Both the position numbers and the translations under genes were made by a program. This document shows, in pieces, positions 27,713-55,449 of a stretch of 64,000 bases of DNA. The stretch spans positions 583,589 through 647,588 of the forward strand of contig CATLOR010000001.1 of assembly GCA_950054255.1 (NCBI GenBank), in the 5' to 3' direction. This DNA is from an uncultured Rickettsiales bacterium. Lineage in GTDB: Bacteria > Pseudomonadota > Alphaproteobacteria > Micavibrionales > GCA-2720935. Each line of letters begins with the position of its first letter. Position 1 is the first letter of the stretch. Under the pieces are notes generated by a model, which ran no database searches, had not been told where the DNA came from, and saw only the letters and a program-made list of their open reading frames with translations.

Positions 27713-27814
27713 GCCTTATATTCCTTATGTTTTTTAGAAATTATATTTTTATTTAGGATAAATATGCACCAATTGCAAATAATGAATTGAGAATTGTTAA
27801 AAGCCTTGATAAGA

Positions 27815-27842
27815 TTCTTGTGCTTTAAGTGTTACTTATAAT
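27815..27842 (+). promoter_or_regulatory. Candidate sigma-70-type promoter for the stator/T1SS locus
   Basis: TTCTTG (27815-27820) is followed by a 16-nt spacer and TATAAT (27837-27842), 20 nt before the ATG at 27862. This is a sequence match only. Confidence 0.3.
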
Positions 27843-27861: not shown

Positions 27862-29310
27862 ATGATTAAAAATCTTAGAAAAAATGTAAGACTTCTTAGA
27901 AGTGGGAAGCGAAACAATAGACATTTGGGTGATCTAGATACACGTCTTTTGTCATTTGTTACGCCTGCAATGATTACAGTATTATTGATTGTCATCTATA
28001 TTGTTTCGACTTCTATTGATACATTAAGACAATATTACGAAACAAACATTGTTTTGAATGGCTTGATTATTGGTACATTGATCTTCACCATTGGTCTCGT
28101 CTTTAGTAATTTGATTGATCTATATAAGGCAGCACGCTTTTTAAAGTCTATTGATGAAAAAACGGTAGATGGCGATGCAAGCGATCAAGATATCGACCAG
28201 TTTCATGCGCAATTAAGAACACGCGGTAAGATCCTTAATATTAGTAATATGCATGATGCGATCGATCGTATTCGTAATTTCTCTGTAATTCAATTCACAG
28301 ATAATGATGCGCGTATTATTAAGTCTAAGCTTGGATTTAGAATGAACCTTGGTAGAGGCGGTGTTGGCTTCTTGGCGGGCCTTCTCGTTATGTTGGGGCT
28401 ACTTGGTACGTTCTTGGGTCTATTGAAAACGATTGATGCGGTGGGTGTCGCGATGGGCAGTATGTCCAATCTTGGTGCTGATGGCGGTATGGAAAGTTTC
28501 ATTGAATCGATTTCTGCTCCGTTACAAGGGATGGGTCTTGCGTTTAGTTCGTCGTTATTTGGTCTGTCAGGGTCTTTATTGTCTGGGTTTTTTAATTATC
28601 TCTCAAATGGTGCTCAAAACAGATTTATTGAGGATGCTGGACGTTGGATTGATAATAGAATTCCAAAGTTTGACGCTTCAAAAGTCCCGGATAAAGAAGT
28701 TAAAAAAGCGCCAAGCAAAGATGATATGCAATCATGGTTGTTGGGCTATGTTTATTTGGCGAATAAAACAAATAAAAGATTGGGGAGTTTGTTTGGTGCG
28801 TTGAGTGATTTAACGGATCAGACCAAAAAAGCATCTGAAAAAACGGACCAAGTTGTCGCTGTTGGGCAAGGCTCTAACGAGATTTTGGGTAAAATTGCTA
28901 CAGATTTAAGTGGACGTCAAGAAACGATGAAGAATATGGAAAGTCTGGTTGGTCAAGTCGGGCGTAATATTCAGGATATGACGCAAGTGAACATTGAGTC
29001 TAAATCCCTTCTATCGCAAATTGATACACGTTTTGAAAGTTTCCAGACGGACACGTCTAAAGAAAAAGCACAGTTGAAAGAGCTTTTAGGTCAGATTCAA
29101 ATGATGCGCAAAGTTGGGATCAAATTTGGAACAATACAAAAGACGCTAACCGATGAGCTTGGTGTTTTGGCTGTGGCTATGAAAGATCAATCAGGTGATC
29201 GTCATGCCGTTTTGAATGCGCTTAATGGTATTCAAAAAACACTAGAGAAAACAGCTCATGAACAAAAGAAAGAGAGTGCCCTTTCTAAAAAGAAAGGAAG
29301 TAGTCTTTAA
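27862..29310 (+). CDS. MotA/ExbB/TolQ-family proton-channel protein with a long C-terminal coiled-coil tail
   Basis: It is 482 aa. Two N-terminal TM segments, a ~80-aa loop and two further TM segments carry the family motifs GLLVMLGLLGTFLGLL and GMGLAFSSSLFGLSGSL. About 230 further residues are hydrophilic and heptad-like. Confidence 0.7.
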   Translation: MIKNLRKNVRLLRSGKRNNRHLGDLDTRLLSFVTPAMITVLLIVIYIVSTSIDTLRQYYETNIVLNGLIIGTLIFTIGLVFSNLIDLYKAARFLKSIDEKTVDGDASDQDIDQFHAQLRTRGKILNISNMHDAIDRIRNFSVIQFTDNDARIIKSKLGFRMNLGRGGVGFLAGLLVMLGLLGTFLGLLKTIDAVGVAMGSMSNLGADGGMESFIESISAPLQGMGLAFSSSLFGLSGSLLSGFFNYLSNGAQNRFIEDAGRWIDNRIPKFDASKVPDKEVKKAPSKDDMQSWLLGYVYLANKTNKRLGSLFGALSDLTDQTKKASEKTDQVVAVGQGSNEILGKIATDLSGRQETMKNMESLVGQVGRNIQDMTQVNIESKSLLSQIDTRFESFQTDTSKEKAQLKELLGQIQMMRKVGIKFGTIQKTLTDELGVLAVAMKDQSGDRHAVLNALNGIQKTLEKTAHEQKKESALSKKKGSSL

Positions 29311-30008
29311 TGTCGGGTGACAGCGAAAGTGACTTATCAGCGATTGCGTGGCCAGGGTTCGTGGATATTTTGTCTGCGGTTATTATCATGTTCGTCTTCT
29401 TCGTTTTGATTATTGCCGTTGTTCTTTATTTCCATGTTATTACATATAAGGCTAAGGTACAGACAGACGCGGTTAATCTTGCGATGGAGGCTGTCACTGA
29501 GTTAGAGATTGAAGATCCTAAGGCTGCTGGTGCGCCGCCTCCTACAGATGATCTCGTACAACAGGTTATCACTTTGCAGGTACGTAATGAGGCGTTAGAG
29601 CAAACAATCACAGATTTAAAAAAGTTGATGCAATCTCACGCGGAGTTCTCTGAATCTGAAAACCAGACATTTGAAGAGAATGTTGAAGAGGCACGTTTTG
29701 TGGTGTTTTTTGGGATCGATACGATTACTTTAACAGAAGATTCATTTAAAGCGTTGGAATCATTTGTCGAAAAGGTTTCGAATCGCTATAATCTTAGTGA
29801 ATCTCGAGCCGTTATTTATGGAGGTGTTGACGATAATGCCCGTCAGCCTACAGCTTCTAAGAAACTTGCTGTTGCTAGAATGCTGAATGCTAGAAACGTA
29901 TTATTGAAAACAGATCTACCAAAAGATGAAATTTCAGTGAAAATTGATGCTGGTCGAGAGATAGAAGAAGAGTTTAACTGGGTTGAGGTTGTAATAGAAC
30001 CTAAATAG
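29310..30008 (+). CDS. MotB-like protein with a single TM segment and a C-terminal OmpA-like peptidoglycan-binding domain
   Basis: It is 232 aa. WPGFVDILSAVIIMFVFFVLI places an Asp (D19, codon 29364-29366) at the cytoplasmic end of the TM segment, as in MotB/ExbD/TolR. The C-terminus ...GGVDDNARQPTASKKLAVARMLNARNVL is OmpA-like. The start overlaps the upstream stop by 1 nt (TAATG). Confidence 0.7.
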   Translation: MSGDSESDLSAIAWPGFVDILSAVIIMFVFFVLIIAVVLYFHVITYKAKVQTDAVNLAMEAVTELEIEDPKAAGAPPPTDDLVQQVITLQVRNEALEQTITDLKKLMQSHAEFSESENQTFEENVEEARFVVFFGIDTITLTEDSFKALESFVEKVSNRYNLSESRAVIYGGVDDNARQPTASKKLAVARMLNARNVLLKTDLPKDEISVKIDAGREIEEEFNWVEVVIEPK

Positions 30009-30017
30009 TTGAGTGGT

Positions 30018-31355
30018 ATGTTTTTTTTAAGACCAATTATAAATATAAGCATCATAGCGTGCGTTGCCTATATGTGCGCGTTTGGTGTTAATTCAGCTAA
30101 AGCTGAGCAAGCTGCAGGCTTTGAGTTGTCGCTTCCATCAGCAATTTTATTTGCATTGAATAATAACCCAGATGTTCAAATTTCTGAGGAAAGAGAAGAA
30201 CAAGGCTATTACTCAATTGAAGAGATCCGTGCTGATTTATATCCTCAAATTCAGATGGCAGCAGATATTGGTTTGCAATATAATGATCCTGCAACAGGGT
30301 TTACACCGTCTACTGGTAATATTAGAACATCAACAGAGGTGAGTTTTACAATTCAGCAGATTCTTTTTGATGGGTTTAGGACGTTAGAAAATATCAATCA
30401 ACAACACGCAACAAATAAATCGCTTTCTTATGAAACAGATGTTTTGACGCGTGATGTTATTTTAGAAGTGGTGACGGCCTATCTTAATATATTACAAGGG
30501 CAAAAAACACTGCGTGCTCAAGAGCGCTTAGTTGATCGTATCTCTGACTTGGTTTCAAAGATAGAGTTGCAATTCGAGGCTGGGGCGGCGAGTAAGACGG
30601 AGCTTGATTATGCATCGTCTCGTTTGCTTTTTGCGCAATCTCAATTAACAAATGTACGCTCAACTTTGAATGATTCTATTAGTGAGTTGGAGTCTCAGAC
30701 AGGTGCTTTGCCTGAATTTGTGACATTGGAACCAGAGTTTTTGTATGCTCAGAAAACGGAGCTTCAATCTTATTTGAACTATATGTTTAAGAATAATGCT
30801 GATTTCAAAGCGAACCAGTATAAAAAAAGAGCTTTAGAACATAAATATTATACAGAAGAAGCTGCGCGTTACCCGTCATTTAACGCACAAGTTGGTGGTA
30901 AGCAGACAACAGATGATGGCGGTGCTTCTGGTATGTATCGGGAATTTGAGGCGAGTGTTAAGATGAGCTACAAGATTTTTGATGGTCATTTACTGGATGC
31001 TACGCAAGATAAAATTATGTCGCAAATGCGTGAATTGGAATATACCGATTTAACTTTGGCAAAAGATTTGCGCCGTGATGCCGAACAGTTGTATAATCAA
31101 CTCGAATCAGTTGAAGATAATTTGCGTATTAATGCCGATGAGATTGCGACAAATGAGGTGCTGCAAGCACTGAATAGGAAAAATTTCGAATCAGGCTCTA
31201 TTGATATTATCGAATTGATCGAAGGAGAAGAGAGATTAGTTGATTCATTGTCTAGAAAATATGGCTTTGTGACAGATATTTATCGCAATACATATGAATT
31301 ATTACTTCTGGTCGGTGTATTAGATAAAACTTATTTTTGTAAAAGTTGTGAGTGA
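30018..31355 (+). CDS. TolC-family outer-membrane factor
   Basis: It is ~445 aa with a signal peptide. It has a two-fold internal repeat of long helical segments. N-terminal SLPSAILFALNNNPDV is typical of the start of OMF proteins. A TTG at 30009 directly abuts the upstream stop. Confidence 0.85.
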   Translation: MFFLRPIINISIIACVAYMCAFGVNSAKAEQAAGFELSLPSAILFALNNNPDVQISEEREEQGYYSIEEIRADLYPQIQMAADIGLQYNDPATGFTPSTGNIRTSTEVSFTIQQILFDGFRTLENINQQHATNKSLSYETDVLTRDVILEVVTAYLNILQGQKTLRAQERLVDRISDLVSKIELQFEAGAASKTELDYASSRLLFAQSQLTNVRSTLNDSISELESQTGALPEFVTLEPEFLYAQKTELQSYLNYMFKNNADFKANQYKKRALEHKYYTEEAARYPSFNAQVGGKQTTDDGGASGMYREFEASVKMSYKIFDGHLLDATQDKIMSQMRELEYTDLTLAKDLRRDAEQLYNQLESVEDNLRINADEIATNEVLQALNRKNFESGSIDIIELIEGEERLVDSLSRKYGFVTDIYRNTYELLLLVGVLDKTYFCKSCE

Positions 31356-31363
31356 TTTATTTC

Positions 31364-32281
31364 ATGAAGAAAAAGATAAACAAAAAGACATTATTTAATT
31401 GGGCTAAAAAGAGCGCGATTGTTTCTCTTTTTTCTGTGTTGATCTTATCTTCTTCAGTTTCTAGAGCATCTTGGAACCCTTTAGAAAAAGTGGAAGGGCA
31501 ATGCTTTAGTTACAAGTCTATAGATGCTGTTGGGGAGTTCTTTATTTATACAGAGGAAAAAGGGTTTAACTTTGTTTTAGCCTCTGAAACAGCATTAAAA
31601 TTAACGGGTGAAGACGACCTTGTTGCCTTCATTAAAAAAGACGGTTTCGCAGACTATTTTGATCTTATTCAATACGAAGATGATATTGTTAATTTTTCTG
31701 TTCCGTTAAGTTATTTTGAACAAAATGATTACCGCGATATTGCGAATGTGTTCTTTTATGTTGGTGATACGTACGAAAAATTAATTCCATTTGATATTCC
31801 TGCAGCAACATTTGCAGCACTTAATGCTTGTGAAGGGTTGCATGGTAAAGAAAAGTTCTTGGATAACCCTATGTTTTTTAACGAAAATGACGTAGCGGAA
31901 GCTGTGATTGAAGAGCAAAGATCTCCGTATGACTTTTCTAGGTTGCCTGCAAAAGAATTGCCTGACGCTGAATTAGCGCATGAGCAAACGTTAGAATATG
32001 TACAAACCCAAGAAAATGAAGGGCAAGATGTGGTTTTGGAAGACAAAGATGTTCCTTTCTTTGAAGAAGTACAGCGCCACATGCAAAAAAATATTTTTAT
32101 TCCAGTTGAATCAAGTATCACTGACGTTGACATAAGTTTAAACGAACAGCTTGAAATCATTGATTCTTTGACTGAAAAAATTAAACTTTTAGAGGTTGAA
32201 AAAGAGTTTCTACGTAAAAAGTTGGATTCTCAAGGTGATGAAATCATAAATGTAGTTGCCGATTCCTCAGAAAAGTCATAA
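31364..32281 (+). CDS. Exported protein of unknown function embedded in the T1SS locus
   Basis: It is ~305 aa with a basic N-terminus and a hydrophobic signal (AIVSLFSVLILSSSVSRA). The central region is acidic and the C-terminus is a coiled coil. I recognised no motifs. A GTG at 31352 would overlap the TolC-like stop. Confidence 0.55.
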   Translation: MKKKINKKTLFNWAKKSAIVSLFSVLILSSSVSRASWNPLEKVEGQCFSYKSIDAVGEFFIYTEEKGFNFVLASETALKLTGEDDLVAFIKKDGFADYFDLIQYEDDIVNFSVPLSYFEQNDYRDIANVFFYVGDTYEKLIPFDIPAATFAALNACEGLHGKEKFLDNPMFFNENDVAEAVIEEQRSPYDFSRLPAKELPDAELAHEQTLEYVQTQENEGQDVVLEDKDVPFFEEVQRHMQKNIFIPVESSITDVDISLNEQLEIIDSLTEKIKLLEVEKEFLRKKLDSQGDEIINVVADSSEKS

Positions 32282-32412
32282 GATACACTATATATCCGTT
32301 CGGGTATTTCTTAACTATTTCTTTCTTTTTGTGTGTCATACTTATTGATAATAGGACAGTTACGTCCCGATCTTAAAAGGACACAAGAATAGTTTTCGAG
32401 GAGCTGTAAGCA

Positions 32413-35400
32413 ATGAAAGACATACAAATGCCACAATCTGGCACCGAAGAAATGGTGGTCATTCAACCTGGTGAACACATTAATATTGTCGGTGTTTCTT
32501 TTGATCAAGTAAGTGTTGATATTGTTGGTACGGACATTGTGATCTTTAACGAAGCTGCTGGATCTAAGCTTGTATTCCCAGGTATGGGGCTTCTGATCTT
32601 TGAGCAAAGCTTGGCGCCTGAAATTTCTTTTGGTGGTGAATCTGTTGGTGTTAATAAGTTTGTATCTCGCGTTGGTGAGGTTGGTAACTTAACAGTAAAA
32701 GACTTTATCGCTATTTCGAGTATTTTGCCTCAGAAATCAGATTCTGAAGAAGAAAATTTACAAAGCGCTGAAGTTGATGCTAAGTCTGAAAAACAGCAAG
32801 AAACAGTAGCATCTTCTAGTTCAGCTCCAACAGAAGCACCTGTTGAGTCTCAATCTCAATCTTCTCAGAAAAAAGTTGAAGAAGATAAAGCGAAAACGAA
32901 AACACCGCCAAATGCGGTTGATGAAGAAGGGACATCGGATGGTACTTTTGAAGCTGTTGCTCAGTCTGATGGTGCGCCGCCTGCTTCTACAAATCCAAAT
33001 ATCTCTCCAACATTAGGGGAGGCGCCTGAAGAGCCAGTAACATCTCTTTCTATTGACGCGAATTTATTACAGGTTGCTGCTACTCAAGAAACACTGACTG
33101 TTGGTGCGCAAGATGTGCGCTTTATCTATGGTGGTGGTGGTTCAGCGACATCTTTCTTCGATCCTGAAAACCAACATCAATTCTCAACAGAAGCTATTGA
33201 TGCTTCTAATTCGTTATTATCAACGAACATTATTGCTGATAACCCAGATTATTATTCTGATGTACAAATGGCGCGTGTTCTACAGATTGAACCGACAGCG
33301 CCAGATGCTTTCTTTGTCACTGAAATCACGATTACAGGATTGCCTGATGGCTATGGTATTGTGGGACAAGAAAGACAAGAAGATGGTAGTTTCTTGATCG
33401 AAAACCCTGATTATACAGGACAAGGTGATATAAGATTTATTATCACATACCCGATCCCCGCATATGAATCATTTGTCTTAGAATTTGATTTTCTGGCTGA
33501 ATTTGATACACAATTCGCTGCTGATAACGGTATTCGAGCAACATCGATTACAGAGCTTGAGTTTTCTTTTGATCAAAAAGTTGAGCAAAATGATGTTTCT
33601 GGCCCAGATGATTTGAATTATACAGATATTGAAGGTGATTTCGTTTGGGTACTTGCAAATGCGCCAAATGACAACCGTATTGTTGGTTCAGCTCAAGATG
33701 ATGATATCACAGGTAATAGTGCTTCTGACTTTGTAACAGCAGGGGCTGGAAATGATATTGTTCGTGGTGGTGCAGGTGATGATACATTAGATGGTGAGGC
33801 TGGGAATGACACCTTAATTGGCGGTACAGGTTCTGATAGCTATATCGGTGGTGATGGCGTCGATGTTGTTGATTTCACAGACATAACAGCTGTTATTGAA
33901 GTTGATTTAAGTGATTTAAATGTTGATAATTTCGCTGTTATTGATATTGACCGTTTGGGCCCTGCGCCAGAACAAGATTTTATTAGAGAAGTTGAAAATA
34001 TTGACTCAGGGTCAGGAAGTGACGTCTTAACAGGGAATGCTTCTGATAACTATTTCCAAGGGAATGATGGGAATGATATTTTAGCGGGTCTTGGCGGTAA
34101 TGATATTTTAGATGGAGGAACAGGATCTGATACAGCAGATTACTCGAGAGAGGCGCAAGCTGTAACAGTTGATATGTCTTTGACAGTTGATCTTGAGAAT
34201 AAATTTGCAGTGATCGATTCTGAGACAAACCTTGATACTCTGATTAGCATTGAAAATATCATTGGTACAGATTTCGATGACTCTATTACAACAGATGAAA
34301 ATGATAACATTATTCAAGCAGGCTTAGGTGATGACTATATTAATGCTGGTGCTGGTGATGATACAATTGATGGTGGCGCTGGTGTTGATACATTGGATTA
34401 CTCTACATCAACAACGTCTGTTTCTATTGATTTAGGTGGGCCTCAGAACGGGAATGGTTATATTTCAGCCTCATCTGGTGTTGATAACGATCTTGTTATT
34501 AATGTTGAAAATATTATAGGGTCTCTTTTAAATGACAATATTTCTGGTGATGCGAATGACAACTTTCTTCGTGGACTAGATGGGTCTGATACACTACGTG
34601 GCGCGGATGGCGATGACACGATTGATGGTGGTATCGGTAGTGATTTAATTAATGGTGACGCTGGTGATGATACGATTATTGCGAGTATTGGTAGCGATGT
34701 TATTGATGGTGGTACAGGGTCTGATACGGTTGATTATTATAATTTAGCGACAATTAATCCTGGCGCTGAAGCTATTACAGTTTTACTGGATAATACAAAT
34801 GCTGTGACTGTGACAGTGATTAATGGTGATGATGATCAAATTCGTGGTGTTGAAAATATTCGCGGTACAACCTTTAATGACAATATCACAGGAGATGATG
34901 CGAATAACCATCTGCGTGGGATGGAGGGTGATGATACACTTTCTGGTCGTTTGGGCGATGATATCTTAGATGGTGGTGCAGGTATTGATACAGCTGATTA
35001 TACATTAGCGACAAGTGGTATTGATGTTGATTTGGCACTAAACACAGTCTTTGCTGATGGAGATGGTGGTAATGATACAATTATTTCGATCGAAAACATT
35101 CGTGGTTCTTCTTTTGATGATGTGATTTTAGGAAGTGGTAGCGCAGAAACATTAAGTGGTTTTGCGGGTAATGACCGTATTGCTGGCCGTGGTGGTAATG
35201 ATATCATTGATGGTGGTTTAGGGAATGATACAGTTGATTACGCAACACAGGCAAATGCTGTTATTGTTGATTTAATTGCTGGTACAGGACTGGATACGGT
35301 TGATTCTTCTGTAGATACATTGATTAGTATTGAAAATGTGATTGGTTCTGCGTTTGATGACCAAATTGTTACGGATGTTAACTTTAACGATATTAGAGCA

Positions 35401-47400: not shown

Positions 47401-50298
47401 AATGATATGGATGGTGGCGCTGGTGTTGATACTGTTGATTATTCTAATGCTGGTGGCAATGTTACGATTAACCTTGCAACGGGTTCTGTGACTGGTTTTG
47501 GTACAGATACTGTTACAAATATTGAAAATGTGATTGGTTCGGATAACAATGATACGATTGTAAGTGGCTCTGGTAATAATGATCTAGATGGTGGCGCTGG
47601 TACAGATACACTTTCATTTGCGAATGCTGGATCAGGTGTCACAGTTGATATGGGTGCAGGCACAGCAACAGGTGATGGTAGTGATACATTCTCTAACTTT
47701 GAAAACTTAACAGGTTCAAGTAATGCTGACAGCTTAACAGGTGATGCTAACGTTAATACAATCAATGGTGGCGGCGGTACCGATACAATTGATGGTGCTG
47801 GTGGTGCAGATGTGATTAATGCTGGTGGCGGTAATGATACAATCATCTTTGATGCAAGCGATACATCTGTTGATGGTGGCGCTGGTACTGATACCTTAGT
47901 TGCAAGCAACTCTGGTGATACAATTGATCTAAGTGTTGGTTCAATCACAAATGTTGAAAATATTACAGGTGGTACAGGTGCTGACACCTTAACAGGTGAT
48001 GCTGCTGTAAACACAATTAATGCAGGTGCTGGTGCGGATATCATCGATGGTGGCGCTGGGGCAGATATCATTAATGCTGGATCAGGGAATGATACAATCA
48101 TCTTTGACGCAAGCGATACATCGGTTGATGGTGGTGCAGATACTGACACAATTCAATTAAGCAACTCAGGCGATACGATTGATTTAAGTGTTGGTTCAAT
48201 CACAAATGTTGAAAATATTACAGGTGGTACAGGCGCTGATAACATTACTGGTGATAATGCAGCAAACGTTATTAATGCAGGTGCTGGTGCGGATATCATT
48301 GATGGTGGCGCTGGGGCGGATACAATTGATGCAGGGGCTGGGAATGATACCGTTTCTTATGATGCATCAGATGTTTCAATTGACGGTGGCGCGGACACAG
48401 ATACGCTTCAATTAGGTAACGGTGGTGTGACTTATACGCTTAACACAGGAAACACGAGCAATTTTGAAAACATTACAGGTGGTACAGGTAACGATACATT
48501 AACTGGTGATGGTTCTGCAAACGTGATTAACGGTGGATCAGGGAATGATACGCTTGATGGTGCTGGCGGTGCGGATACGCTTAACGGCGGTGCTGGTAAT
48601 GATACAATTATCTATGACGCAGCGGATACATCAATTGATGGTGGCGCGGATACTGATACGCTTCAATTAAGTAATGCTGGTGATACAGTTGATTTAAGTT
48701 CTGGATCAATTAGCAATATTGAAATTGTTCAAGGTGGTACAGGCGCTGATAATATTACTGGTGATGGTAATGCAAATACAATCAATGGCGGTAATGGTAA
48801 TGATACAATTAATGCTGGTGGCGGTGCCGATATCATTGATGGTGAAGGCGGATCAGATACAATTGATGCTGGCGCTGGTAATGATACAATCATCTTTGAC
48901 GCGGCTGATACATCGGTTAATGGTGGCAGTGGGACAGATACCTTAGTTGCAAGCAACTCAGGTGATACAATTGACCTAAGTGTTGGTTCGATCACAAATG
49001 TTGAAAATATTACAGGTGGCACAGGTGCTGATACCTTAACAGGTGATGCGACTGTGAACACAATTAATGCAGGTGCTGGTGCGGATATCATTGATGGTGG
49101 CGCTGGGGCAGATATCATTAATGCTGGATCTGGTGATGATACAATTATCTTTGATGCAAGTGATACATCAATTAATGGTGGTGCGGACACAGATACAATT
49201 CAATTAAGCAATGCTGGTGATACAATTGACCTAAGTGTTGGTTCGATCACAAATGTTGAAAATATCACAGGTGGTACAGGTGCGGATAACATTACTGGTG
49301 ATGGCAGTGCAAATGTGATTAATGCAGGTGCTGGTGCGGATACTATTGACGGTGGTGCGGGCGCAGACACAATTGATGCTGGTGCTGGGAATGATACAGT
49401 TGCTTATGATGCACTTGATGTGTCAATTGATGGTGGCGCGGATACAGATACACTTGTTACAGATAATAGCGGTGTCACAGTAACATTGAATTCAGGTAAC
49501 ATTAGTAACTTTGAAAACTTAACTGGTGGTACAGGTAACGATACTTTAACGGGTGATGCTTTTGATAATACCATTAATGGTGGTGACGGTAATGATACGT
49601 TAGATGGCGCTGCGGGTACAGATATTTTAAATGGTGGTGCTGGTAATGATATCTTAGATGGTGGTGTTGGTGCAGATACGTTAAACGGTGGCTCAGGTAA
49701 TGATACATTAGATGGTGGTGCTGGTTCGGATATTTTAAATGGTGGTGATGATATTGATACAGCTGATTATTCTTCATCTGCGGCCGTTTCTGGTGGTGAG
49801 ATCAGAGGCGCGACATCAACATTCTTAAATGTTGGTCCTGCAACAGATACATTAAATGACATTGAAATCATCGATTTATCAGGTAATGATGATACCATCA
49901 ACATTGACGCCGATGGTTTAGCAGATCTAACAACACTTGATGGTCAAGGTGGTACAGATACCTTTATCTGGTTAGATACTTCTGGTGGTGCTGATCTGAC
50001 AGACTCTGGTATTGATGGTGTTGATATGGCTTCTGTCTTTAGAAATGTTGAGACAATCGACTTTAGAAATACAGATATCACAGGTATAGATACATTTGAT
50101 ATTGGTGATGATGAGATCCGTGCAATGACAGATGGTGGCGATAGCTTGACAATCTTAATTGATGGTACAAATATCACATTGAATGACTTCTCATTCTTGG
50201 ATCAAACATCAAGCGTTGATACAAATAATACAGATAACACAACATTCCGTACTGTTACTTGGGCAGATGGAACACAAGTTGATATTCAAGTTAGCTAA
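32413..50298 (+). CDS. Giant RTX (repeats-in-toxin) calcium-binding beta-roll protein, a probable T1SS-secreted adhesin, 5961 aa
   Basis: It is a single uninterrupted 17,886-nt ORF with GAGGAG 8 nt before the ATG. From about residue 430 onward it contains GGxGxDxL/I nonapeptides throughout. These are organised in modules of the form ...DYS..A..V.VDL..G.A..DG.G..DTL..IENV.GS..(N/D)D.(I/L).GD. The N-terminal ~430 aa and the C-terminal ~170 aa are non-repetitive, and there is no Cys-rich or enzymatic domain. T1SS genes flank it. Confidence 0.9.
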   Translation: MKDIQMPQSGTEEMVVIQPGEHINIVGVSFDQVSVDIVGTDIVIFNEAAGSKLVFPGMGLLIFEQSLAPEISFGGESVGVNKFVSRVGEVGNLTVKDFIAISSILPQKSDSEEENLQSAEVDAKSEKQQETVASSSSAPTEAPVESQSQSSQKKVEEDKAKTKTPPNAVDEEGTSDGTFEAVAQSDGAPPASTNPNISPTLGEAPEEPVTSLSIDANLLQVAATQETLTVGAQDVRFIYGGGGSATSFFDPENQHQFSTEAIDASNSLLSTNIIADNPDYYSDVQMARVLQIEPTAPDAFFVTEITITGLPDGYGIVGQERQEDGSFLIENPDYTGQGDIRFIITYPIPAYESFVLEFDFLAEFDTQFAADNGIRATSITELEFSFDQKVEQNDVSGPDDLNYTDIEGDFVWVLANAPNDNRIVGSAQDDDITGNSASDFVTAGAGNDIVRGGAGDDTLDGEAGNDTLIGGTGSDSYIGGDGVDVVDFTDITAVIEVDLSDLNVDNFAVIDIDRLGPAPEQDFIREVENIDSGSGSDVLTGNASDNYFQGNDGNDILAGLGGNDILDGGTGSDTADYSREAQAVTVDMSLTVDLENKFAVIDSETNLDTLISIENIIGTDFDDSITTDENDNIIQAGLGDDYINAGAGDDTIDGGAGVDTLDYSTSTTSVSIDLGGPQNGNGYISASSGVDNDLVINVENIIGSLLNDNISGDANDNFLRGLDGSDTLRGADGDDTIDGGIGSDLINGDAGDDTIIASIGSDVIDGGTGSDTVDYYNLATINPGAEAITVLLDNTNAVTVTVINGDDDQIRGVENIRGTTFNDNITGDDANNHLRGMEGDDTLSGRLGDDILDGGAGIDTADYTLATSGIDVDLALNTVFADGDGGNDTIISIENIRGSSFDDVILGSGSAETLSGFAGNDRIAGRGGNDIIDGGLGNDTVDYATQANAVIVDLIAGTGLDTVDSSVDTLISIENVIGSAFDDQIVTDVNFNDIRAGTGDDIMIGSDGSDTYDGGAGDDFIDYLFSGATSLSVTLDSSNNASVTLAGLGTVDTIRNVEGIGGTFGNDTMIGDALANTFSGDDGDDFFQGGLGADLILGGTGNDTFSLDDLSGTGFGVNMNLVLGTAEDTFSGSIDNFVGIETYILTDAADTVISSAFAETVQAGAGDDVINASAGTDTFDGGTGVDTLSYTNFAAGNAITVDLDAGNAVSVTVSGGSVDTISNIENVTGSQGDDVISGDGLINHLIGGQGNDILDGEANDDILEGGFGNDTLIGGLGDDTLIGGTGSDTADYSGAAGNIIVDMTGNIASADGDGGVDIFDSIENVIGTDFNDTIAGNAFANTLTGGAGDDTISGGSGSDTLDGGAGTGDRLRFDELVDGFININIGTGSATYSADSSVDSFMNFEFYELTAQNDIVTGSTGIDDVQTLAGDDTINASAGDDIYDGGDGSDTIDYSASGATSISVALAGTSTTTVTVSGLAGDDTIRNIENVTGSTGNDTITGDSNVNRILGQAGDDIIIGGAGSDILDGGAGTDTLRFDDLVGAGIQIDFDVNRATFFGDSSQDVFSNFEIFYMSNQDDIINSFTGAETVFGLGGDDTFNADSGADTFDGGTGTDTVDYSGMATANFITVTLNGNADATVTINGDASVDTIRDIENVIGTAGADTITGDAEGNDLSGLSGADILDGGDGDDYLRGGNDNDTLIGGAGSDTLDGGLGTDTADYSGAAAGINANLGANSVSNDGDGGGDNLISIENIRGSNFADNVFGNAFVNSIFGLDGNDILRGGEGSDFLDGGDGTDTLRFDDLLNSGITLDLQAGTANYSFDNSTDTFTNFENYVTTALDDVISGSAGVDIVNAVSGQDLFNASAGNDQLDGGLGTDEVDYSGLSGVSITLTLDTSNYATVTVTGGDDDQIRNIENVTGSTGADDITGDSFVNVIDGDAGDDTLRGRGGNDVLDGGAGTDTADYSLAAGAVNVDLSINRAISDGDGSTDTLNNIENVSGSVVDDTLAGDAGNNVLFGNTGNDTLRGRGGDDTLDGGVGTDEADYSLAAAGVTIDLLNGQTTDDGDGGVDTLVNIEDLIGSGFDDDITGDDGANTITGGAGNDILRGEGGDDFLAGGSGTDTIDYRVASGSVSVDLTSSQTSNDGDGGVDTLSSIENVIGSAGNDLIIGNALGNVLNGDAGNDDLRGRGGDDTLDGDGGIDTANYVLATNAVTVDLSVGQATDDGDGGVDTLIEIENVTGSINNDTLTGDSGINTLNGGDGDDLLEGLGGDDTIIGGIGTDTVTYANSTAGVTVDLFNSTTTNDGFGGVDTLVTIENITGSGNADSLTGDNSANLISGGAGNDTIRGRGGNDDLRGGAGTDTVDYSLASSGVVVDLAINNTSNDGDGGIDTLSGFENIQGSNFADVLNGDAANNTINGGVDNDTLYGAGGNDTIIGGDGDDTVSYDRAAAAVTVDLALGLAVNDGDGGIDTLTTIENVLGSDFDDTLTGDNLANTLSGGAGVDTLDGGDGDDLLQGDAGNDNFIASAGADTFDGGTGSDTLDYQNLAGANFITVSLLGSSDATVTVDGGSADTVRNVENITATAGADTLIGDGNANTFFGLGGADRLIGGGGTDTLDGGAGTDVVDYSTSIAGVNVDLSTNQATDDGLGATDNIFNVENIRGSIYGDTLKGDGATNTVDGDQGNDTFLYSGGNDILDGGADIDTVDYSQDGSVTSISVTLTNSTLATVTVNGGDNDQVRNIENITATSGSDSIFGDTADNTITLLGGNDFARGGLGSDTFDGGAGYDILYFDDIAGGGITLDLGAATATFDGDASTDTFTGFEEYWGSNQGDLLTGSANADLIYGNGGDDIFYGTAGTDTLDGNGGSDTINFASYAAANFITVTLNGGTAANVVVNGSDTDSIVNIENVTGSQGDDVITGDSGINTLSGGLGDDTLDGGLGNDFINGDAGADMILGNDGADNIDGGAGVDTLDYSVHGNANAITVTLNDSGNAGVQIDGAEDDIIRNIENIIGTAGADVIIGDTQQNLLEGRDGNDFLTGGTGADTLDGGDGIDTADYSVFGSTGAISVTLNGSNDVTVNVTGDDNDTIRNIENVIGTLNNDTIIGDSLDNELTGNDGDDTLIGNGGMDTLDGGDGSDTVDYSLDVTATAISVILNADATATVTVTGSPDVDLIRNIENIIATAGNDTIEGDFLANNLRGLAGDDTFNNIGDGDVIDGGADTDTIYNGLLGNVTIDMSTISMGYATATNGTESYQFINVENFRSFENLNATYDITGDANDNIITTSNDRNNNDTVRGGGGNDTISTYEGNDTVYGDAGDDIINTGNGNDTVYGGDGNDTITGNGTMYGDAGDDVINFSGTAYGGDGDDTITGTNSTSNDTIYGGAGNDTLSGGNYSDTIYGGDDNDTIYGGNHTDTLYGDAGDDIIYGGNERDRLYGGDGDDQLFGQNNNDRFYLSNGTDHIDGGSQGGNNIGDANILSNGSYGDYIMGSDLSDVTGATRITVDLQAGTFSTDAGTSGTLTNIESVIGNTGNDVVTDNGSNNDIELGAGDDIIYADGGGNDYFRGDAGSDTLDYTGEAGNISVNLNTVAAGAVTVSVDSGAEADIIYGFERFIGGEGNDYIIAHASDTTYLAGGAGNDYLLGDDGVLVEAGDGNDRLGSRASGGATLDGGAGNDTVEYSGTNGQSSGTAGISVTLQETGDTTVDYLDGSATDETIRNIENITGSDYADQITGNSVTNILIGGAGNDTFGASDGNDTYNGGSGSDTLDYSGFLTATAITVALLDSGTATITVTGVGNQFADGIENVTSTAGADDITGNASANTINTGAGNDIVRVSSGADVLNGGADTDTFRADALATGNGILNLTAGTFTNASEGVTTFLSNFEIYYTTNQADTITLHTTDEEVYALNGDDTIIASTGADLIDGGAGTDTLSYNSISGLTGITVTLDGSNDATVTVNGNSDQTIRNIEHLTGSQGNDNITGDAGNNILIGDIGNDTINGGDGDDTIAGGFGNDTLNGGIGTDLLDYSATSGGLDVNLQSGVVASDGQGGSDTVSNFEDVDGGSGDDIISGNNLDNVIDGGVGNDTIQGRGGDDTLIGGGGSDTLSYANAASGVTVDLTSGNVADDGDGGSDTFSGFENLTGSANADNLTGTGSANIITAGAGNDTIVATAGDDTLDGEGGTDIVDYSNAGGAVTVNLDAGTASGFGNDTLANIENVIATANNDTITLNALNNDIDAGAGNDTIFAGYGGTNDIDGQGGGLDIVDYSNSANAVTVDLDAGTATGTGISDTLSNIEGAVGTNANDVFDGDGNNNTFTGGLGIDTITYADDIAPVLVDLTNNFAIDGSASTDTLVGIENVIGTVGDDTIFGDGQANVITGNGGTDFIATAAGNDTIIMSNILNSTLDGGAGFDLIDFSGFGSALTIDLLAGGQTATDGVNTDTLVSIENIIATDFNDIIIGSSVNNDIDGGAGTDTIAFLNATGGVVVSLLAGTATGDGSDTFSNIENVVGSTNNDTIAGDAGDNDLDGDTGTDTLTYAAAAGGVTIDLDAGTVTGDGNDTISNFENVIGSANADTIGGDSGNNDLNGGAGTDTLTYASAAGSVNIDLTAGTVTGDGNDTVSNFENVIGSSNDDTIKGDTGNNNLNGGAGTDTVSYAGVGSSVSVDLQAGTATGHGNDTLSNFENIIGGNNADILVGDTGVNSIQGGAGDDILEGGAGNDTLDGGAGGTDTASYTNGTEGANINMGTGVVSNDGYGNSDTLIDIERVEGTNFADTIVGSANNDTIISNSGNDTITAGDGNDTINAGLGNDTIFAGAGNDNINGGGGVDTINYSAATGAVTVNLQNSTASNDGFGDADTINGVENVVGSAQNDTIGGDTGDNNLDGGAGTDTLSYASTGSAVTVDLDAGTATGHGTDTISNFENVTGGTGNDTIGGDSGNNVINGGSGNDTVTYASAAGGVTINFNTNQVTGDGTDTLISIEDAIGSDNADTFIAGSSSNDMDGGAGVDTVDYSNAGGNVTINLATGSVTGFGTDTVTNIENVIGSDNNDTIVSGSGNNDLDGGAGTDTLSFANAGSGVTVDMGAGTATGDGSDTFSNFENLTGSSNADSLTGDANVNTINGGGGTDTIDGAGGADVINAGGGNDTIIFDASDTSVDGGAGTDTLVASNSGDTIDLSVGSITNVENITGGTGADTLTGDAAVNTINAGAGADIIDGGAGADIINAGSGNDTIIFDASDTSVDGGADTDTIQLSNSGDTIDLSVGSITNVENITGGTGADNITGDNAANVINAGAGADIIDGGAGADTIDAGAGNDTVSYDASDVSIDGGADTDTLQLGNGGVTYTLNTGNTSNFENITGGTGNDTLTGDGSANVINGGSGNDTLDGAGGADTLNGGAGNDTIIYDAADTSIDGGADTDTLQLSNAGDTVDLSSGSISNIEIVQGGTGADNITGDGNANTINGGNGNDTINAGGGADIIDGEGGSDTIDAGAGNDTIIFDAADTSVNGGSGTDTLVASNSGDTIDLSVGSITNVENITGGTGADTLTGDATVNTINAGAGADIIDGGAGADIINAGSGDDTIIFDASDTSINGGADTDTIQLSNAGDTIDLSVGSITNVENITGGTGADNITGDGSANVINAGAGADTIDGGAGADTIDAGAGNDTVAYDALDVSIDGGADTDTLVTDNSGVTVTLNSGNISNFENLTGGTGNDTLTGDAFDNTINGGDGNDTLDGAAGTDILNGGAGNDILDGGVGADTLNGGSGNDTLDGGAGSDILNGGDDIDTADYSSSAAVSGGEIRGATSTFLNVGPATDTLNDIEIIDLSGNDDTINIDADGLADLTTLDGQGGTDTFIWLDTSGGADLTDSGIDGVDMASVFRNVETIDFRNTDITGIDTFDIGDDEIRAMTDGGDSLTILIDGTNITLNDFSFLDQTSSVDTNNTDNTTFRTVTWADGTQVDIQVS
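47842..49653 (+). repeat. In-frame higher-order tandem duplication inside the giant gene (1047-nt period)
   Basis: The block 47842-48888 consists of four ~85-94-aa units. Its first three units recur at 48889-49653 with only scattered substitutions. For example, GATACCTTAGTTGCAAGCAAC occurs at 47890 and again at 48937. Confidence 0.85.
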
Positions 50299-50440
50299 GA
50301 TCTTGAAATAAAGTTTGTATTACGACAAGTCTATAGAGGTTTTTTTAAGACTCTTGTTTCAAAATAGAGTAGGATAACAAAAGTTGTCTCCTTCATCTCT
50401 TGAAGGTGTGTCTGAGTATCATTAAGAAAATCTACGGGTC

Positions 50441-52552
50441 ATGGAACACGGAAATATATTAAAATGCGCGCATTATATCCTCACTTTTTATGGAGTTGAG
50501 GTGGATTTTGATGGTGTTCTTTCTCAATTAGATATTGATAGAGAAAATTTAACGGGCAAAGATCTCGAAAAAATCGCAACTAAGACACATATGAGCTTTA
50601 AAAAAGAAGAGCTATCGATCAAACGTATCGTTCAAATGAATGTGCCTCTCATTCTTAAGGTTTCAAAAGATTTATATGCTGTTTTCCGCCCAGGTATGGG
50701 AGGGCAGAATGAATTCTTAGTCCCTGGTGGGCAACCAGAAGATCAAGAACGTCTTCATGCAGAAATTCAAAATTATGAAGGCGAAGTATATTTTTTATAT
50801 CCAGAAAGTGCTGAAAATGATCTTGATATAGAGCATATGATTAAAGGTAATAAGTTAGATTGGTTTTGGAAACCGATTATTGACTATTGGGGACATTATT
50901 CCGAAATTCTTATTTGCTCGCTTTTCATCAATTTATTTGGGCTTATCATGCCTGTTTATACATTGAATGTGTATGACCGTGTAATTGTAAATTTTGCTGA
51001 ATCCACCTTAATTGTTTTGTTGGTGGGGGTTTTAATTGCTCTGACATTTGATTTCTTATTCAAAAATGTGCGGGCCTATATTTTAGAAAAAGTAGCCTCA
51101 TCCATTGGGACAAAGCATGATCGAGAATTGATGGAGAAATTTATGTTATTGCGTGCCCCTGGCTTGCAATTAACGGTTGGTGAGAAAGCGTATTTATTTA
51201 AAGAATTACAAGGTATTAGAGATTTTTATTCAACAAAGCTTGTGCCAGCATGCGTGGATTTCCCATTCTTTTTATTATTCTTATGGGTGATTTATTTCTT
51301 GGCACCAACATTGGTTTGGGTTCCGATCACGATTGCTGTTGTTATCTTCTGTGTTGATATTTTTATTCAAATTCCTTTAAATCATGCAATTAAAAGTTAT
51401 TTCTCGGCTATGAAAGATAAGTCAACGATGATGTATGAAACATTATCAGGACTTCGCACAATGCAATTATTTAATGGTGTTGGTCAGCGTTTATTTAAAT
51501 GGAATCTTGTAACATCGAAATCTTTTGAAGCGCGTCGCTATAATCAGGTCATTATGACGGTGGTTGCGAATTTCTCAGGTTATATGATCCAGCTATCAAA
51601 TGTGTTGGTTGTCTTTTTTGGTGCTTATGAGATCAGTGAAGGGAATTTGACAATTGGGGGCTTGATCGCGTGTTCTATTTTATCAGGAAGAGCTTTAGCG
51701 CCTGTTATGAATTTGTCTTCGATTATTTCAAACTATAAACTAACAAAAGATGTATTAGACACAGTAGATCAGATCTTTAAATTGCCTGATGATAATATTT
51801 ATAACCGTGGTTTAGGTATTAAGAAGGATAAATTTAATGGTGATATAGAGGCGCGCAATTTATTTTTCCAATATACAGGACAAGAACGTATGGCCTTAGA
51901 AGATATTTCCTTCAAAATTACAGCAGGTGAGAAAGTCGGTTTGATTGGTCGTTCTGGTGCGGGTAAGTCAACGCTTACAAATGTTATTCTTGGTATATAT
52001 CCTCCAACAAAAGGAATGGTTTACTTTGATAATTATATGAGCCAAGCAATTGCTTCGACAGAATTGCGTCGAAATATGGGCTATGTGCCACAACATTCTT
52101 TCTTTTTTAAAGGAACGATCAAAGAAAATATCATGATGGGTCGTGATATTGCTTATGAAGAGAATTTAGAAGAAATCATTCATATTTCTGGTGTTGATCT
52201 GATCTTGCAACAAAGCGGTGAAGGTCTTGATATGGCGATTGAAGAAAATGGTGAAAATTTATCAGGAGGGCAACGTCAATCAATAGCAATCGCACGTGCT
52301 CTTATTACAAAACCAAATATTTTACTGTTTGATGAGCCTACAACAGGTATGGATATGATGTTGGAACAACATATTAAAAAGACATTATCAGCCTACTTAA
52401 AGAATAGAACATTGATTATGATTACACACCGCACAAGCTTGATGCCCCTTATTGATCGCATTATATTGCTGGATAATGGTCGTAGAGTTGCTGATGGACC
52501 GCGTGATGATGTTTTGGCAAAATTAGCAGGAAAAGGAAAGAAAGGAGAGTAA
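50441..52552 (+). CDS. Type I secretion ABC transporter (HlyB-like) with an N-terminal C39-like domain
   Basis: It is 703 aa. It has an N-terminal ~130-aa peptidase-C39-like region without the Q-x-ECG catalytic context, a six-TM domain, Walker A GRSGAGKST, signature LSGGQRQ and Walker B ILLFDEPT. Confidence 0.93.
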   Translation: MEHGNILKCAHYILTFYGVEVDFDGVLSQLDIDRENLTGKDLEKIATKTHMSFKKEELSIKRIVQMNVPLILKVSKDLYAVFRPGMGGQNEFLVPGGQPEDQERLHAEIQNYEGEVYFLYPESAENDLDIEHMIKGNKLDWFWKPIIDYWGHYSEILICSLFINLFGLIMPVYTLNVYDRVIVNFAESTLIVLLVGVLIALTFDFLFKNVRAYILEKVASSIGTKHDRELMEKFMLLRAPGLQLTVGEKAYLFKELQGIRDFYSTKLVPACVDFPFFLLFLWVIYFLAPTLVWVPITIAVVIFCVDIFIQIPLNHAIKSYFSAMKDKSTMMYETLSGLRTMQLFNGVGQRLFKWNLVTSKSFEARRYNQVIMTVVANFSGYMIQLSNVLVVFFGAYEISEGNLTIGGLIACSILSGRALAPVMNLSSIISNYKLTKDVLDTVDQIFKLPDDNIYNRGLGIKKDKFNGDIEARNLFFQYTGQERMALEDISFKITAGEKVGLIGRSGAGKSTLTNVILGIYPPTKGMVYFDNYMSQAIASTELRRNMGYVPQHSFFFKGTIKENIMMGRDIAYEENLEEIIHISGVDLILQQSGEGLDMAIEENGENLSGGQRQSIAIARALITKPNILLFDEPTTGMDMMLEQHIKKTLSAYLKNRTLIMITHRTSLMPLIDRIILLDNGRRVADGPRDDVLAKLAGKGKKGE

Positions 52553-52558
52553 GTCACT

Positions 52559-53827
52559 ATGTTTGAAACCATAGATAAAATGTGGTCGTACAGGCCTGTA
52601 TTATTACTTGTGATTTGTTTGTTTTTTTCTTTCATTTCATGGGCATCATTAACAGAAATTGATCAACAAGTGCGTGGGACTGGGCGTGTTATCCCCTCTG
52701 GTAAAGCGCGTATGATTCAACATCTTGAGGGTGGTATTATTGATAAAATTCTCATCAAAGAAGGTCAAAAAATAGAAGCTGATCAGCCTATGTTTATTAT
52801 TAGTAATGAACGTGCAGAAAATGATTTGGACGAACTGGATATTACGCTTGCCTCATATACGATCAAGCAAACACGCTTGAAAGCGGAATTAAATAAACAA
52901 AATACGATTGATTTCGACCCTGAATCGATTGAAAAATATCCATCAATTGTTGTTTCAGAAAAACAATTATTCGAGGCGCGTCGTTCAAGCTTCAAAGAAA
53001 AAATCAAAAGTATGGAAGAAAAATTCCGTCAAAAATCCTTAAAGCTTGTTGATTTAAATACACGCGTGAAAAACTTAAAAGAAGAATTGGAAATTGCAAA
53101 AGAGCAATTAGAGATTAAGCGGCGTTTATTTGAGGCAGGTGCTATGTCGCGTAGCCGTTTTCTTGATGCACAAAGTGAGGTCAAAGATTTCAATACGCGT
53201 ATTTCTAGAGTTGACAAAGAAATACCTGTAGTCATTGCTGAGCGTGCTGAGGCGGATAATTTATTGGAAGAATATCGCCAAGCTTATTATTCAGAAGTCT
53301 TAGATCAACTTCAAGAAGTGCAGTTTGATATTAAAAAGGTGAGCGAACGTATAGCCTCTCTCCAAGACCAGGTGACAAGAACATCTGTTAAATCTCCTAT
53401 TAAAGGAATTGTGAATAAACTTCATATTAATACAATTGGCGGAGTTGTTCAGCCAGGAGCTGTGATGGCTGAGGTTATTCCAGTTGATGAAACACTTATT
53501 GTTGAAGGACAAATTTCAACGGAAGATCGTGGTAAGGTATGGCCATCACTTCCTGTAACGGTTAAGATTACGGCTTATGATTACACAATTTATGGTGGGC
53601 TAGACGGGACATTGACGAATGTGAGTGCTGATAGTTTTCTTGATAAGCAGAATAATGAATATTACCAAGTGTTTGTCACATTAGAAGGACAAAGCCTTGG
53701 CCCTGATAAACCCGTCTACCCAGGGATGATCGCAGAGATTAATATTAAAACAGGTAAAATCTCTGTCTTAAGCTCAATCCTAAGACCTTTTTGGGAAATT
53801 AAAGATAACGCTTTAAGAGAAAAATAA
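52559..53827 (+). CDS. Type I secretion membrane fusion protein (HlyD family)
   Basis: It is 422 aa with an N-terminal TM segment. VRGTGRVIPSGKARMIQHLEGGII is the lipoyl/beta-barrel start. A long coiled-coil hairpin follows, and the C-terminal GM.AEINIKTGK is typical of HlyD. Confidence 0.93.
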   Translation: MFETIDKMWSYRPVLLLVICLFFSFISWASLTEIDQQVRGTGRVIPSGKARMIQHLEGGIIDKILIKEGQKIEADQPMFIISNERAENDLDELDITLASYTIKQTRLKAELNKQNTIDFDPESIEKYPSIVVSEKQLFEARRSSFKEKIKSMEEKFRQKSLKLVDLNTRVKNLKEELEIAKEQLEIKRRLFEAGAMSRSRFLDAQSEVKDFNTRISRVDKEIPVVIAERAEADNLLEEYRQAYYSEVLDQLQEVQFDIKKVSERIASLQDQVTRTSVKSPIKGIVNKLHINTIGGVVQPGAVMAEVIPVDETLIVEGQISTEDRGKVWPSLPVTVKITAYDYTIYGGLDGTLTNVSADSFLDKQNNEYYQVFVTLEGQSLGPDKPVYPGMIAEINIKTGKISVLSSILRPFWEIKDNALREK

Positions 53828-53839: not shown

Positions 53840-54466
53840 TTATGATGCTTTTGGAGAACGATTTTTAGGCGTTTTCTGTTGCGTTGGAACGGAGGTTTTG
53901 CTTTGCTCTAATGCATTATCAATCCATTCTTGTGCGATCTCAGAACTGGTGCACACTTTATGGGCGATATAACGCTTAAGTAGACCGTCAATACCATTGG
54001 GTAACTGTTGATAAAAGCTATCTGGGATAAAGAGTGAGGCAACTTTATAGCGCCTATAATCTGTTCCTTGATAAAAATCTAATACATGAAAGAAAGCATC
54101 TTCATCTTCTGGTGTGGCGTCTGAAAAAATAACAGGAATATCAAAAGAGGTATTTTGGGCAGCGTCATACATATCTACTTTTGAATGGTTAAAAGCACTG
54201 TTTAAGTCATGTAGTGTCAAGCTTGTTGCCTCTAAACGTTTCTCCATAATGGTATCAGGTGTATTTAAAATAGCGCAAATATCACGAATAAAATTAAGGC
54301 CAGCTCTTTTGTGAGCAGCTTGTTTCCAATGTTGGAGGTTTGTATTGATAAAAATAACAGGAAGAGCAAAGCCATTATCTTGAACTTCACAAATTTCCAA
54401 ATCATTCTTGTTTTTTAAGATGGCAACATAGTTTTTGTGTTTATTCGCTGTGCTCATAATCATCAA
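53840..54466 (-). CDS. Hypothetical protein
   Basis: It is 208 aa with no recognised motifs and a polar/basic C-terminal tail. It is divergent from the zeta-toxin-like gene. Confidence 0.45.
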   Translation of the reverse strand: MMIMSTANKHKNYVAILKNKNDLEICEVQDNGFALPVIFINTNLQHWKQAAHKRAGLNFIRDICAILNTPDTIMEKRLEATSLTLHDLNSAFNHSKVDMYDAAQNTSFDIPVIFSDATPEDEDAFFHVLDFYQGTDYRRYKVASLFIPDSFYQQLPNGIDGLLKRYIAHKVCTSSEIAQEWIDNALEQSKTSVPTQQKTPKNRSPKAS

Positions 54467-55429: not shown

Positions 55430-55449
55430 CTTTAAAAAAAGGTATAAAT

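Follow-up and report, generated by a model that had tools for sequence, protein, structure and literature searches.

SiiA and SiiB of Salmonella are the only members associated with a type I secretion system (T1SS) that are listed in the 5:2 ion-motor family (PMC12204202). SiiA binds peptidoglycan via Arg162 and Arg167 and conducts protons via Asp13 (10.1101/641415; PMC12607715), and SiiB contacts the ATP-binding cassette (ABC) transporter SiiF (PMC6272769, PMC12607715). In Salmonella lacking siiA/siiB, secretion of the cargo SiiE persists, and it is surface retention dependent on the proton motive force (PMF) and adhesion that fail (PMC6272769, PMC12607715). How SiiAB uses the PMF is still unknown (PMC12607715). 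A survey of MotAB relatives pools the non-flagellar forms as generic ion transporters (PMC12505986), and a large T1SS review makes no mention of stator-like subunits. For Legionella lssXYZ, PMC6959600 gives no indication either way of such a pair, and no description of stator-like pairs with repeats-in-toxin (RTX) cargoes was found in the searchable literature. Here, we describe a T1SS locus at positions 27862-53827 (+ strand) of a 64,000-nt stretch, hereafter the window, of contig CATLOR010000001.1 (GCA_950054255.1), which encodes a MotA-like protein (A subunit), a MotB-like protein (B subunit) and a giant RTX cargo.

We read the locus as a SiiAB-like, PMF-coupled accessory pair combined with a T1SS for a giant RTX surface or extracellular protein of ~600 kDa, and give this reading a probability of about 0.72. 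It is favored because the genes are packed as in an operon, the A subunit is ZorA-like, the B subunit carries D19, R190 and R195 and a SiiA-like domain, and the linkage to T1SS genes recurs throughout the clade of the pair. The pair is firmly linked in the genome to a TolC-like gene and to giant RTX cargoes of one homologous family, which come with ABC and HlyD genes. As the earlier note on this DNA had it, the locus consists of seven tightly packed open reading frames (ORFs) on one strand, here given in gene order with the evidence for each:

27862-29310, + strand: A subunit, 482 amino acids (aa), MotA/ExbB/TolQ/ZorA-like (PADLOC ZorA models, fold search)
29310-30008, + strand: B subunit, 232 aa, MotB/SiiA-like (D19, sub-threshold OmpA match, fold search)
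30009-31355, + strand: TolC-like outer-membrane factor with signal peptide (PF02321, TIGR01844)
31352-32281, + strand: exported protein, 309 aa, of no known family (signal-peptide-like N-terminus)
32413-50298, + strand: giant RTX cargo, 5961 aa (HemolysinCabind)
50441-52552, + strand: ABC transporter of the T1SS, LssB/LapB type, N-terminal C39-like domain (TIGR03375)
52559-53827, + strand: HlyD-family membrane fusion protein (periplasmic adaptor; TIGR01843)

The junctions agree with those described earlier for this DNA. The A and B genes have one base in common (TAATG), and the TAG stop of B is directly adjoined by the TTG (30009) of the TolC ORF, for which an alternative ATG lies at 30018. 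With a start at the GTG at 31352, the ORF of the exported protein runs over the TolC stop by 4 nt; with a start at the ATG at 31364, it begins 8 nt downstream of that stop. Gaps of 131 nt and 142 nt precede the RTX and ABC genes, and 6 nt separate ABC from HlyD. Consensus scans, which overall did no better on this DNA than on shuffled sequence, picked out one promoter-like site (27787-27815) and, between the genes, showed no terminator on the + strand. Genes on the opposite strand border the locus (25976-27712 and 53840-54466). A 17.9-kb ORF together with this set of genes cannot have arisen by chance.

The linkage of the pair to type I secretion was surveyed in 167 loci (80 from a set with one genome per species, 80 from JGI metagenomes and seven on contigs with diverse homologues), scored by tblastn with the window proteins. 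The scores are bimodal, and the loci were split at an A-subunit score of 120 bits. The close clade (>=120 bits; n = 50) has 36-62% identity to the window over the aligned core and falls into 34 clusters at 80% identity and 22 at 60%. In this clade, the B homologue lies directly downstream of A in all 40 assessable loci, and TolC follows the pair in 32/32, such that A, B and TolC always form one block. A homologue of the cargo's N-terminal region is found within 10 kb in 20/20 loci, and ABC and HlyD genes within the same distance in 12 of 20; their absence from the others may reflect a giant gene running off the fetched flank, as seen in a TARA scaffold (L081). Counted by 80% cluster, TolC is present in 22/22, the cargo in 24/24 and HlyD in 17/23. 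The block is embedded in seven gene orders (e.g., X-C-D-A-B-T; D-C-X divergent from A-B-T; A-B-T-X) and accompanies cargoes of 1708, 2231, 5491, 5853, 5855, 5922 and 5961 aa. The carriers include metagenome-assembled genomes (MAGs) of Alphaproteobacteria, a Rickettsiales-labelled MAG, Granulosicoccus and Pseudomonadales MAGs. Recurrence of the pair beside T1SS genes, on which the earlier note had made its proposal depend, therefore holds for the orthologous clade, whereas a wider paralogous family (~30% identity) is not linked.

Two features of individual clade loci were also seen. In a gammaproteobacterial carrier, a Pseudomonadales MAG (L084:4097-6183), the giant RTX gene is separated from the ABC gene by a glycosyltransferase gene and a methyltransferase gene, which may serve to modify the cargo. 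In L081, which encodes a 45%-identical homologue (P0004), the region upstream of the locus (L081:364-8479) holds the same families in the same order as 16220-25572 of the window: Band_7, DegP-like Trypsin/PDZ, HAD hydrolase, MiaA (IPPT), Band_7 and NfeD. This common upstream gene order suggests that the T1SS locus occupies a conserved chromosomal position in the lineage.

The wider family corresponds to the distant group of the survey (A-subunit score <120 bits, n = 117 loci; L003-L080 and L129-L167, e.g., L013:9944-11959 and L065:9944-12509), which comes mainly from Alphaproteobacteria. Here, TolC was found downstream in 0/69 loci, and RTX and HlyD genes in 0/44 each. The A gene (~300-440 aa) is followed by an NCBIfam PRK09039 protein in 5/5 scanned loci (E 1e-116 to 1e-139). 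Its product has a short tail or none, belongs to no Pfam or NCBIfam family and is ~30% identical to the locus A subunit over the transmembrane (TM) core. The partner B proteins of the scanned loci (~340-500 aa) combine a TM aspartate in WPGFVD with a long coiled coil and an OmpA domain of canonical type, GHTD included. The B subunits of both groups have a WPGFVD-LS TM signature in common (hhalign 97.8%, E 1e-12), and the locus B subunit itself scores 32.5 bits against PRK09039 (cutoff 305), a relation confined to the TM segment. Many distant loci carry an ABC-exporter gene 2-5 kb downstream on the opposite strand, and the one scanned (L013) is MsbA-related. The MotA-like/PRK09039 pair looks like an uncharacterised 5:2 motor, and by the sequences compared, the T1SS-linked pair is a specialised, diverged paralogue of this widespread pair.

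The A subunit has its best matches among ZorA proteins. Two PADLOC models, which are uncurated, match it (ZorA3, E 7.7e-14; ZorA1, E 6e-13), and NCBIfam ZorA_2 gives 19.6 bits, far below its cutoff of 100. An AlphaFold2 model built with 117 homologues has a pLDDT (predicted local distance difference test score) of 79 overall and >90 over residues 30-270. In a Foldseek search of the PDB with this model, the top four of the best 50 matches and two more are ZorA (8qyk_A, E 5.5e-4, TMt 0.53; 8vvn_D, TMt 0.51; also 8qyd), and the rest are ExbB or TolQ, with ExbB 5sv0 and then TolQ 9ddn next in rank; flagellar MotA is absent from these 50. G179, L180, G182 and T183 (a GLxGT motif) and P220, G223, M224, G225, A227, F228, S229 and S231 are invariant in 117 sequences. 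In an hhalign match that is weak and not significant (probability 10%), T183 falls on T148 of E. coli ExbB. Hydropathy gives a basic N-terminus and hydrophobic segments at ~30-52, 63-85, 166-190 and 220-250, and we infer a MotA-like topology with a cytoplasmic tail. Searches of PDB sequences with both subunits, as single sequences and as full-length profiles, returned coiled-coil noise only. A search of 1.84 billion representatives at 50% identity gave 88 relatives of the A subunit at E<=1e-30, rising to 606 at <=1e-10 and to 1596 at <=1e-3; tblastn against 72,556 plasmids gave no match.

The C-terminal tail of the A subunit (residues 286-476, ~200 aa; 28717-29307) is all helical in the AlphaFold2 model. 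Its family profile matches methyl-accepting chemotaxis proteins in their cytoplasmic signalling domains (3ja6_H, E 3.8e-9; 2ch7) and likewise designed coiled coils. Since Pfam MCPsignal gives no match, the chemoreceptor similarity probably reflects coiled-coil composition. SiiAB has been reported to interact with the chemoreceptor CheM (10.1101/2021.05.14.443827). The window also contains a gene for the flagellar P-ring protein FlgI (1369-2502, - strand, E 3e-133), and the organism is therefore probably flagellated. It is unlikely that the pair is the flagellar stator, because its resemblance is to ZorA, ExbB and TolQ and not to flagellar MotA.

The B subunit has a single hydrophobic segment (20-38), and its invariant D19 lies near the cytoplasmic end of the TM helix. 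Across 108 homologues, the N-terminal motif AWPGFVDILS is near-invariant (P15, G16, F17, V18, D19, L21 and S22 are invariant), and R190, N193 and R195 are invariant too. In an hhalign comparison that is not significant (E 0.078), D19 falls on D25 of ExbD. In the AlphaFold2 model (pLDDT 80), the TM helix is followed by a linker of low confidence, then by a further helix and a compact alpha/beta domain (120-231, pLDDT >90); the linker is disordered or coiled, and the OmpA-like domain spans ~120-232. Foldseek returned 93 PDB matches at E<=1e-3, and each of the 50 listed either is an OmpA-like, MotB, Pal or SiiA domain or is a chain that contains one. The best superposition is with the peptidoglycan-binding domain of Salmonella SiiA (6qvp; TM-score 0.78-0.85, root-mean-square deviation 2.3-3.3 A), compared with ~0.45-0.68 for other OmpA, MotB and Pal domains. 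The analogy to Salmonella pathogenicity island 4 (SPI-4) drawn in the earlier note is thus strengthened, the periplasmic domain being closer to that of SiiA than to other OmpA-like structures. Full-length ZorB (8qyd_F) aligns with the B subunit over 218 columns, and PADLOC ZorB gives no match. A profile of the periplasmic domain gave a borderline match to OmpA of A. baumannii (3td3, E 0.031), in which R190 falls on the conserved LSLAR arginine.

The T1SS partners are assigned by family. The TolC-like protein matches PF02321 (E 4e-45) and TIGR01844 (E 5e-44), and the HlyD protein matches TIGR01843 above cutoff (E 2e-104). The ABC transporter has ABC_membrane and ABC_tran domains and scores 664 bits (E 2e-199) against TIGR03375, the LssB type, whose cutoff is 693; a Peptidase_C39 match of 22 bits, exactly at cutoff, is consistent with a C39-like domain. 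These matches bear out the earlier calls of a TolC-like protein, a C39-like ABC transporter and HlyD, the C39 call at threshold.

The 309-aa exported protein matches no family in Pfam, NCBIfam or PADLOC and has an acidic, coiled C-terminus. Its one clear homologue (34%) is in L081, and L117 and L091 match faintly; elsewhere the position is empty or taken by another exported ORF, these ORFs being weakly related to one another. It was considered as a core component and rejected, as homologues are sparse and many loci lack any ORF there; it is a variable accessory. Of the four differences from SPI-4 listed in the earlier note, those in cargo, gene order and host stand; the extra exported protein is present but is no conserved component.

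The cargo is a giant RTX protein, as had been claimed. HemolysinCabind is its only Pfam family, in 57 stretches (E 4.5e-177 and 1e-166), and in NCBIfam only RTX-repeat-containing families match, all below their own cutoffs; neither database gives bacterial immunoglobulin-like (BIg) repeats. The protein, with 149 GxGxD and 103 GGxGxD motifs, has an extremely acidic composition (D 14.5%, G 17%, K 0.3%). The features of an RTX/T1SS substrate are all in place: GGxGxD repeats, a repeat-free C-terminus (the last ~150 residues) and ABC and HlyD genes directly downstream. The beta-roll part (~5,300 aa) consists of diverged modules with an 80-85-aa period, and arrays at the DNA level are short only; the repeats are old and diverged, and an assembly artefact is therefore unlikely.

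The N-terminal 430 residues of the cargo are non-RTX. A conserved domain of ~100 aa is followed by an acidic low-complexity linker (~105-205) and a second conserved domain (~210-430). Identity of the N-terminal 500 aa to the cargoes encoded by the first nine close loci is 27-42%. Over 21 loci, the first domain keeps a VDI(I/L)G-D(I/V)(I/V) ... FPG(L/M)G ... AP ... K(V/I)G-(V/I)-N signature and the second, after the linker, a YGGGG motif. A homologue search with the cargo N-terminus gave 4 matches only, its word filter being saturated. EAAG at 47-50 was examined as a LapG-type cleavage site and rejected, as it is not conserved in the 21 cargo homologues. No LapG or LapD domains occur among the flanking ORFs scanned (a part of the window's ORFs), and on these two grounds, a LapG-type release mechanism seems unlikely from sequence.

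In the proposed mechanism, the A subunit in the inner membrane and the B subunit would form an accessory complex of the 5:2 ion-motor type, with a predicted A5B2 stoichiometry. D19 of B would carry protons, and the SiiA-like OmpA domain would bind peptidoglycan; PMF coupling is what we infer from these sequence features. Situated next to the TolC-like channel, the complex would use the PMF to control the giant cargo. By analogy to SiiAB, its most likely role would be to hold the N-terminal domain of the cargo in the secretion channel or release it, and thereby to determine surface retention; assisting translocation would be the less likely role. The tail of A may be the part that touches the ABC transporter, in the way that SiiB contacts SiiF. 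That A, B and TolC always stay together as one block suggests cooperation of the motor with the outer-membrane factor. The pair may have derived from a pair of the MotA-like/PRK09039 type that was recruited to the T1SS.

Several results weigh against this reading. No Pfam family, MotA_ExbB included, matches the A subunit at E<=0.01. The Pfam OmpA match of B is sub-threshold (E 6e-4, 20.5 bits, cutoff 27.2). The canonical GHTD aspartate motif of OmpA is replaced by NPNA, and peptidoglycan binding by B is therefore not assured. Alignments by hhalign to single E. coli sequences of MotA, MotB, ExbB, ExbD and TolQ were not significant, with sensible registers. The periplasmic domain of B has only 8-10% identity to that of SiiA, a comparison that involves the 6qvp structure only. 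The earlier descriptions of the subunits as MotA/ExbB-like and MotB/OmpA-like accordingly hold in part: the first is backed by the PADLOC ZorA profiles and the fold search and has no Pfam family behind it, and the second is backed by invariant D19 and the fold search, with an OmpA match that stays below cutoff.

A wider proposal, which we put forward tentatively, is that the locus represents a new T1SS class, in which a tail-bearing 5:2 motor, recruited from the PRK09039-partnered pair independently of SiiAB, mechanically gates, retains or pulls giant beta-roll proteins. Such a class would be widespread in uncultured marine Alpha- and Gammaproteobacteria, and the two motor subunits would be integral to the machine as its fourth and fifth components, with a physical coupling to both the ABC transporter and the TolC-like channel. 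If this were true, PMF-driven mechanics would be a general solution for T1SS cargo on the megadalton scale.

The pair could instead power export itself, with the PMF as a second energy source beside ATP for threading or pulling cargoes of ~1,700-6,000 residues. The lengths of the linked cargoes (1708-5961 aa, at least five of them ~5,500-5,960 aa) and the constant contiguity of the A-B genes with the TolC channel gene fit this idea, and 5:2 motors are able to do mechanical work at a distance (PMC12204202). However, in SPI-4, the one analogue studied, SiiE is still secreted when siiA/siiB are deleted (PMC12607715). Export of many giant RTX and LapA-like adhesins proceeds with no pair of this kind, and the locus encodes no periplasm-spanning transducer like TonB or TolA. 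We consider a role in powering export unlikely.

Even less probable is a static anchor, in which the pair would brace the T1SS envelope complex on peptidoglycan with no ion flow. Lone OmpA-like genes of some RTX-adhesin operons would be comparable: the Shewanella bpfA operon has an OmpA-like gene without a MotA-like partner (PMC3672883). The model of B is also at its most confident in the periplasmic domain. A passive anchor would nonetheless not be expected to keep D19 invariant in 108 B sequences and the Thr/Gly/Pro/Ser motifs of A TM3/TM4 invariant in 117, the residues concerned being the counterparts of ExbD D25 and ExbB T148.

That the pair is an unrelated Zorya-like phage-defence motor or Tol/Ton-like system that merely lies beside the T1SS is hardly credible, despite the ZorA-like helical tail and the best profile and fold matches of A being ZorA, given the ZorA_2 score (19.6 bits against 100), the missing PADLOC ZorB match, the lack of ZorC/D/E effector-like genes in the locus or adjoining ORFs scanned and of TonB, TolA, Pal or TolB partners among neighbouring ORFs scanned, and a linkage (TolC 32/32, RTX cargo 20/20) kept through seven gene orders and 34 sequence clusters.

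On the reading as a SiiAB-like accessory pair, the locus represents a second, diverse stator-like family tied to type I secretion, which comprises ~88 clusters at 50% identity; the survey covered at least 34 of its lineages. With its different cargo chemistry and several gene orders, the family is comparative evidence that the coupling of motor and T1SS is functional rather than a peculiarity of Salmonella. The conserved A-B-TolC block points to the motor's site of action, and the conserved N-terminal domain of the cargo is its likely target. D19, T183, R190 and R195 are invariant residues that can be mutated.

As for the surroundings, the GC content is ~0.39, and a two-piece (permuted) alpha_tmRNA gene (RF01849, 13327-13685, - strand, 218 bits) marks the host as an alphaproteobacterium, as the earlier note had supposed. 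Directly downstream of the locus (54581-60545), a zeta-toxin/AAA_33 gene and a tRNA gene (55823-55894, - strand) are accompanied by genes for a protein with a DotM_C domain (E 2e-49) and for a TraG/DotL-like coupling protein of 905 aa. Genes of this type IVB (Dot/Icm-like) or conjugative-element kind next to a tRNA gene, in an alphaproteobacterium of this GC content, hint at an integrated element or a host-associated lifestyle. Two paralogues of the Asp/Glu/hydantoin racemase family (22571-23311 and 61775-62518) flank the T1SS locus and the type IV secretion-like genes.

Compared with known systems, the locus is most like SPI-4, which is also a T1SS operon with a MotA-like and MotB-like pair adjoining a TolC-like gene. 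The subunits are of similar size (SiiB 462 and SiiA 210 aa vs 482 and 232 aa here), and SiiA has the layout of locus B, with an Asp near the start of the TM helix (D13 vs D19), followed by a linker that is disordered and by a minimal OmpA-like domain. Two arginines stand five residues apart in both (R162/R167 of SiiA vs the invariant R190/R195). In both systems, the cargo is a giant Ca2+-binding protein of ~600 kDa whose N-terminal region is free of repeats, and the ABC transporter has a C39-like domain; siiA, siiB and siiC are the first three genes of SPI-4, to be set beside the A-B-TolC block of the clade. However, SiiE is built of BIg domains and the cargo here of RTX beta-roll modules, and the order siiA(B-like)-siiB(A-like)-C-D-E-F differs from A-B-TolC-x-cargo-ABC-HlyD. 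The hosts are an enteric pathogen in one case and marine Alpha- and Gammaproteobacteria in the other, and in the clade, A extends into a long helical tail whose length varies.

The closest sequence relative of the locus pair is the MotA-like/PRK09039 pair, which differs in its shorter A, its longer B and loci without TolC, HlyD or RTX genes. Zorya is alike in that ZorA is the best profile and structure match of locus A, both having a cytoplasmic helical C-terminal tail, and in that ZorB combines a TM aspartate with a peptidoglycan-binding domain, as locus B does. Conversely, the locus A tail is much shorter (~200 aa), the clade context is always a T1SS, ZorC/D/E effector-like genes are missing from the locus and scanned neighbours, and the profile evidence (NCBIfam score far below cutoff, no PADLOC ZorB) sets the two apart. 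With LapA/LapBCE, the locus has in common an LssB/LapB-type ABC transporter with a C39-like domain, a dedicated TolC and a giant repetitive cargo whose folded N-terminal domain could plug the channel. It differs in having no LapG or LapD in the flanking ORFs scanned and no conserved di-alanine motif in the cargo, and retention would be controlled by the motor pair instead of by proteolysis of the LapA type.

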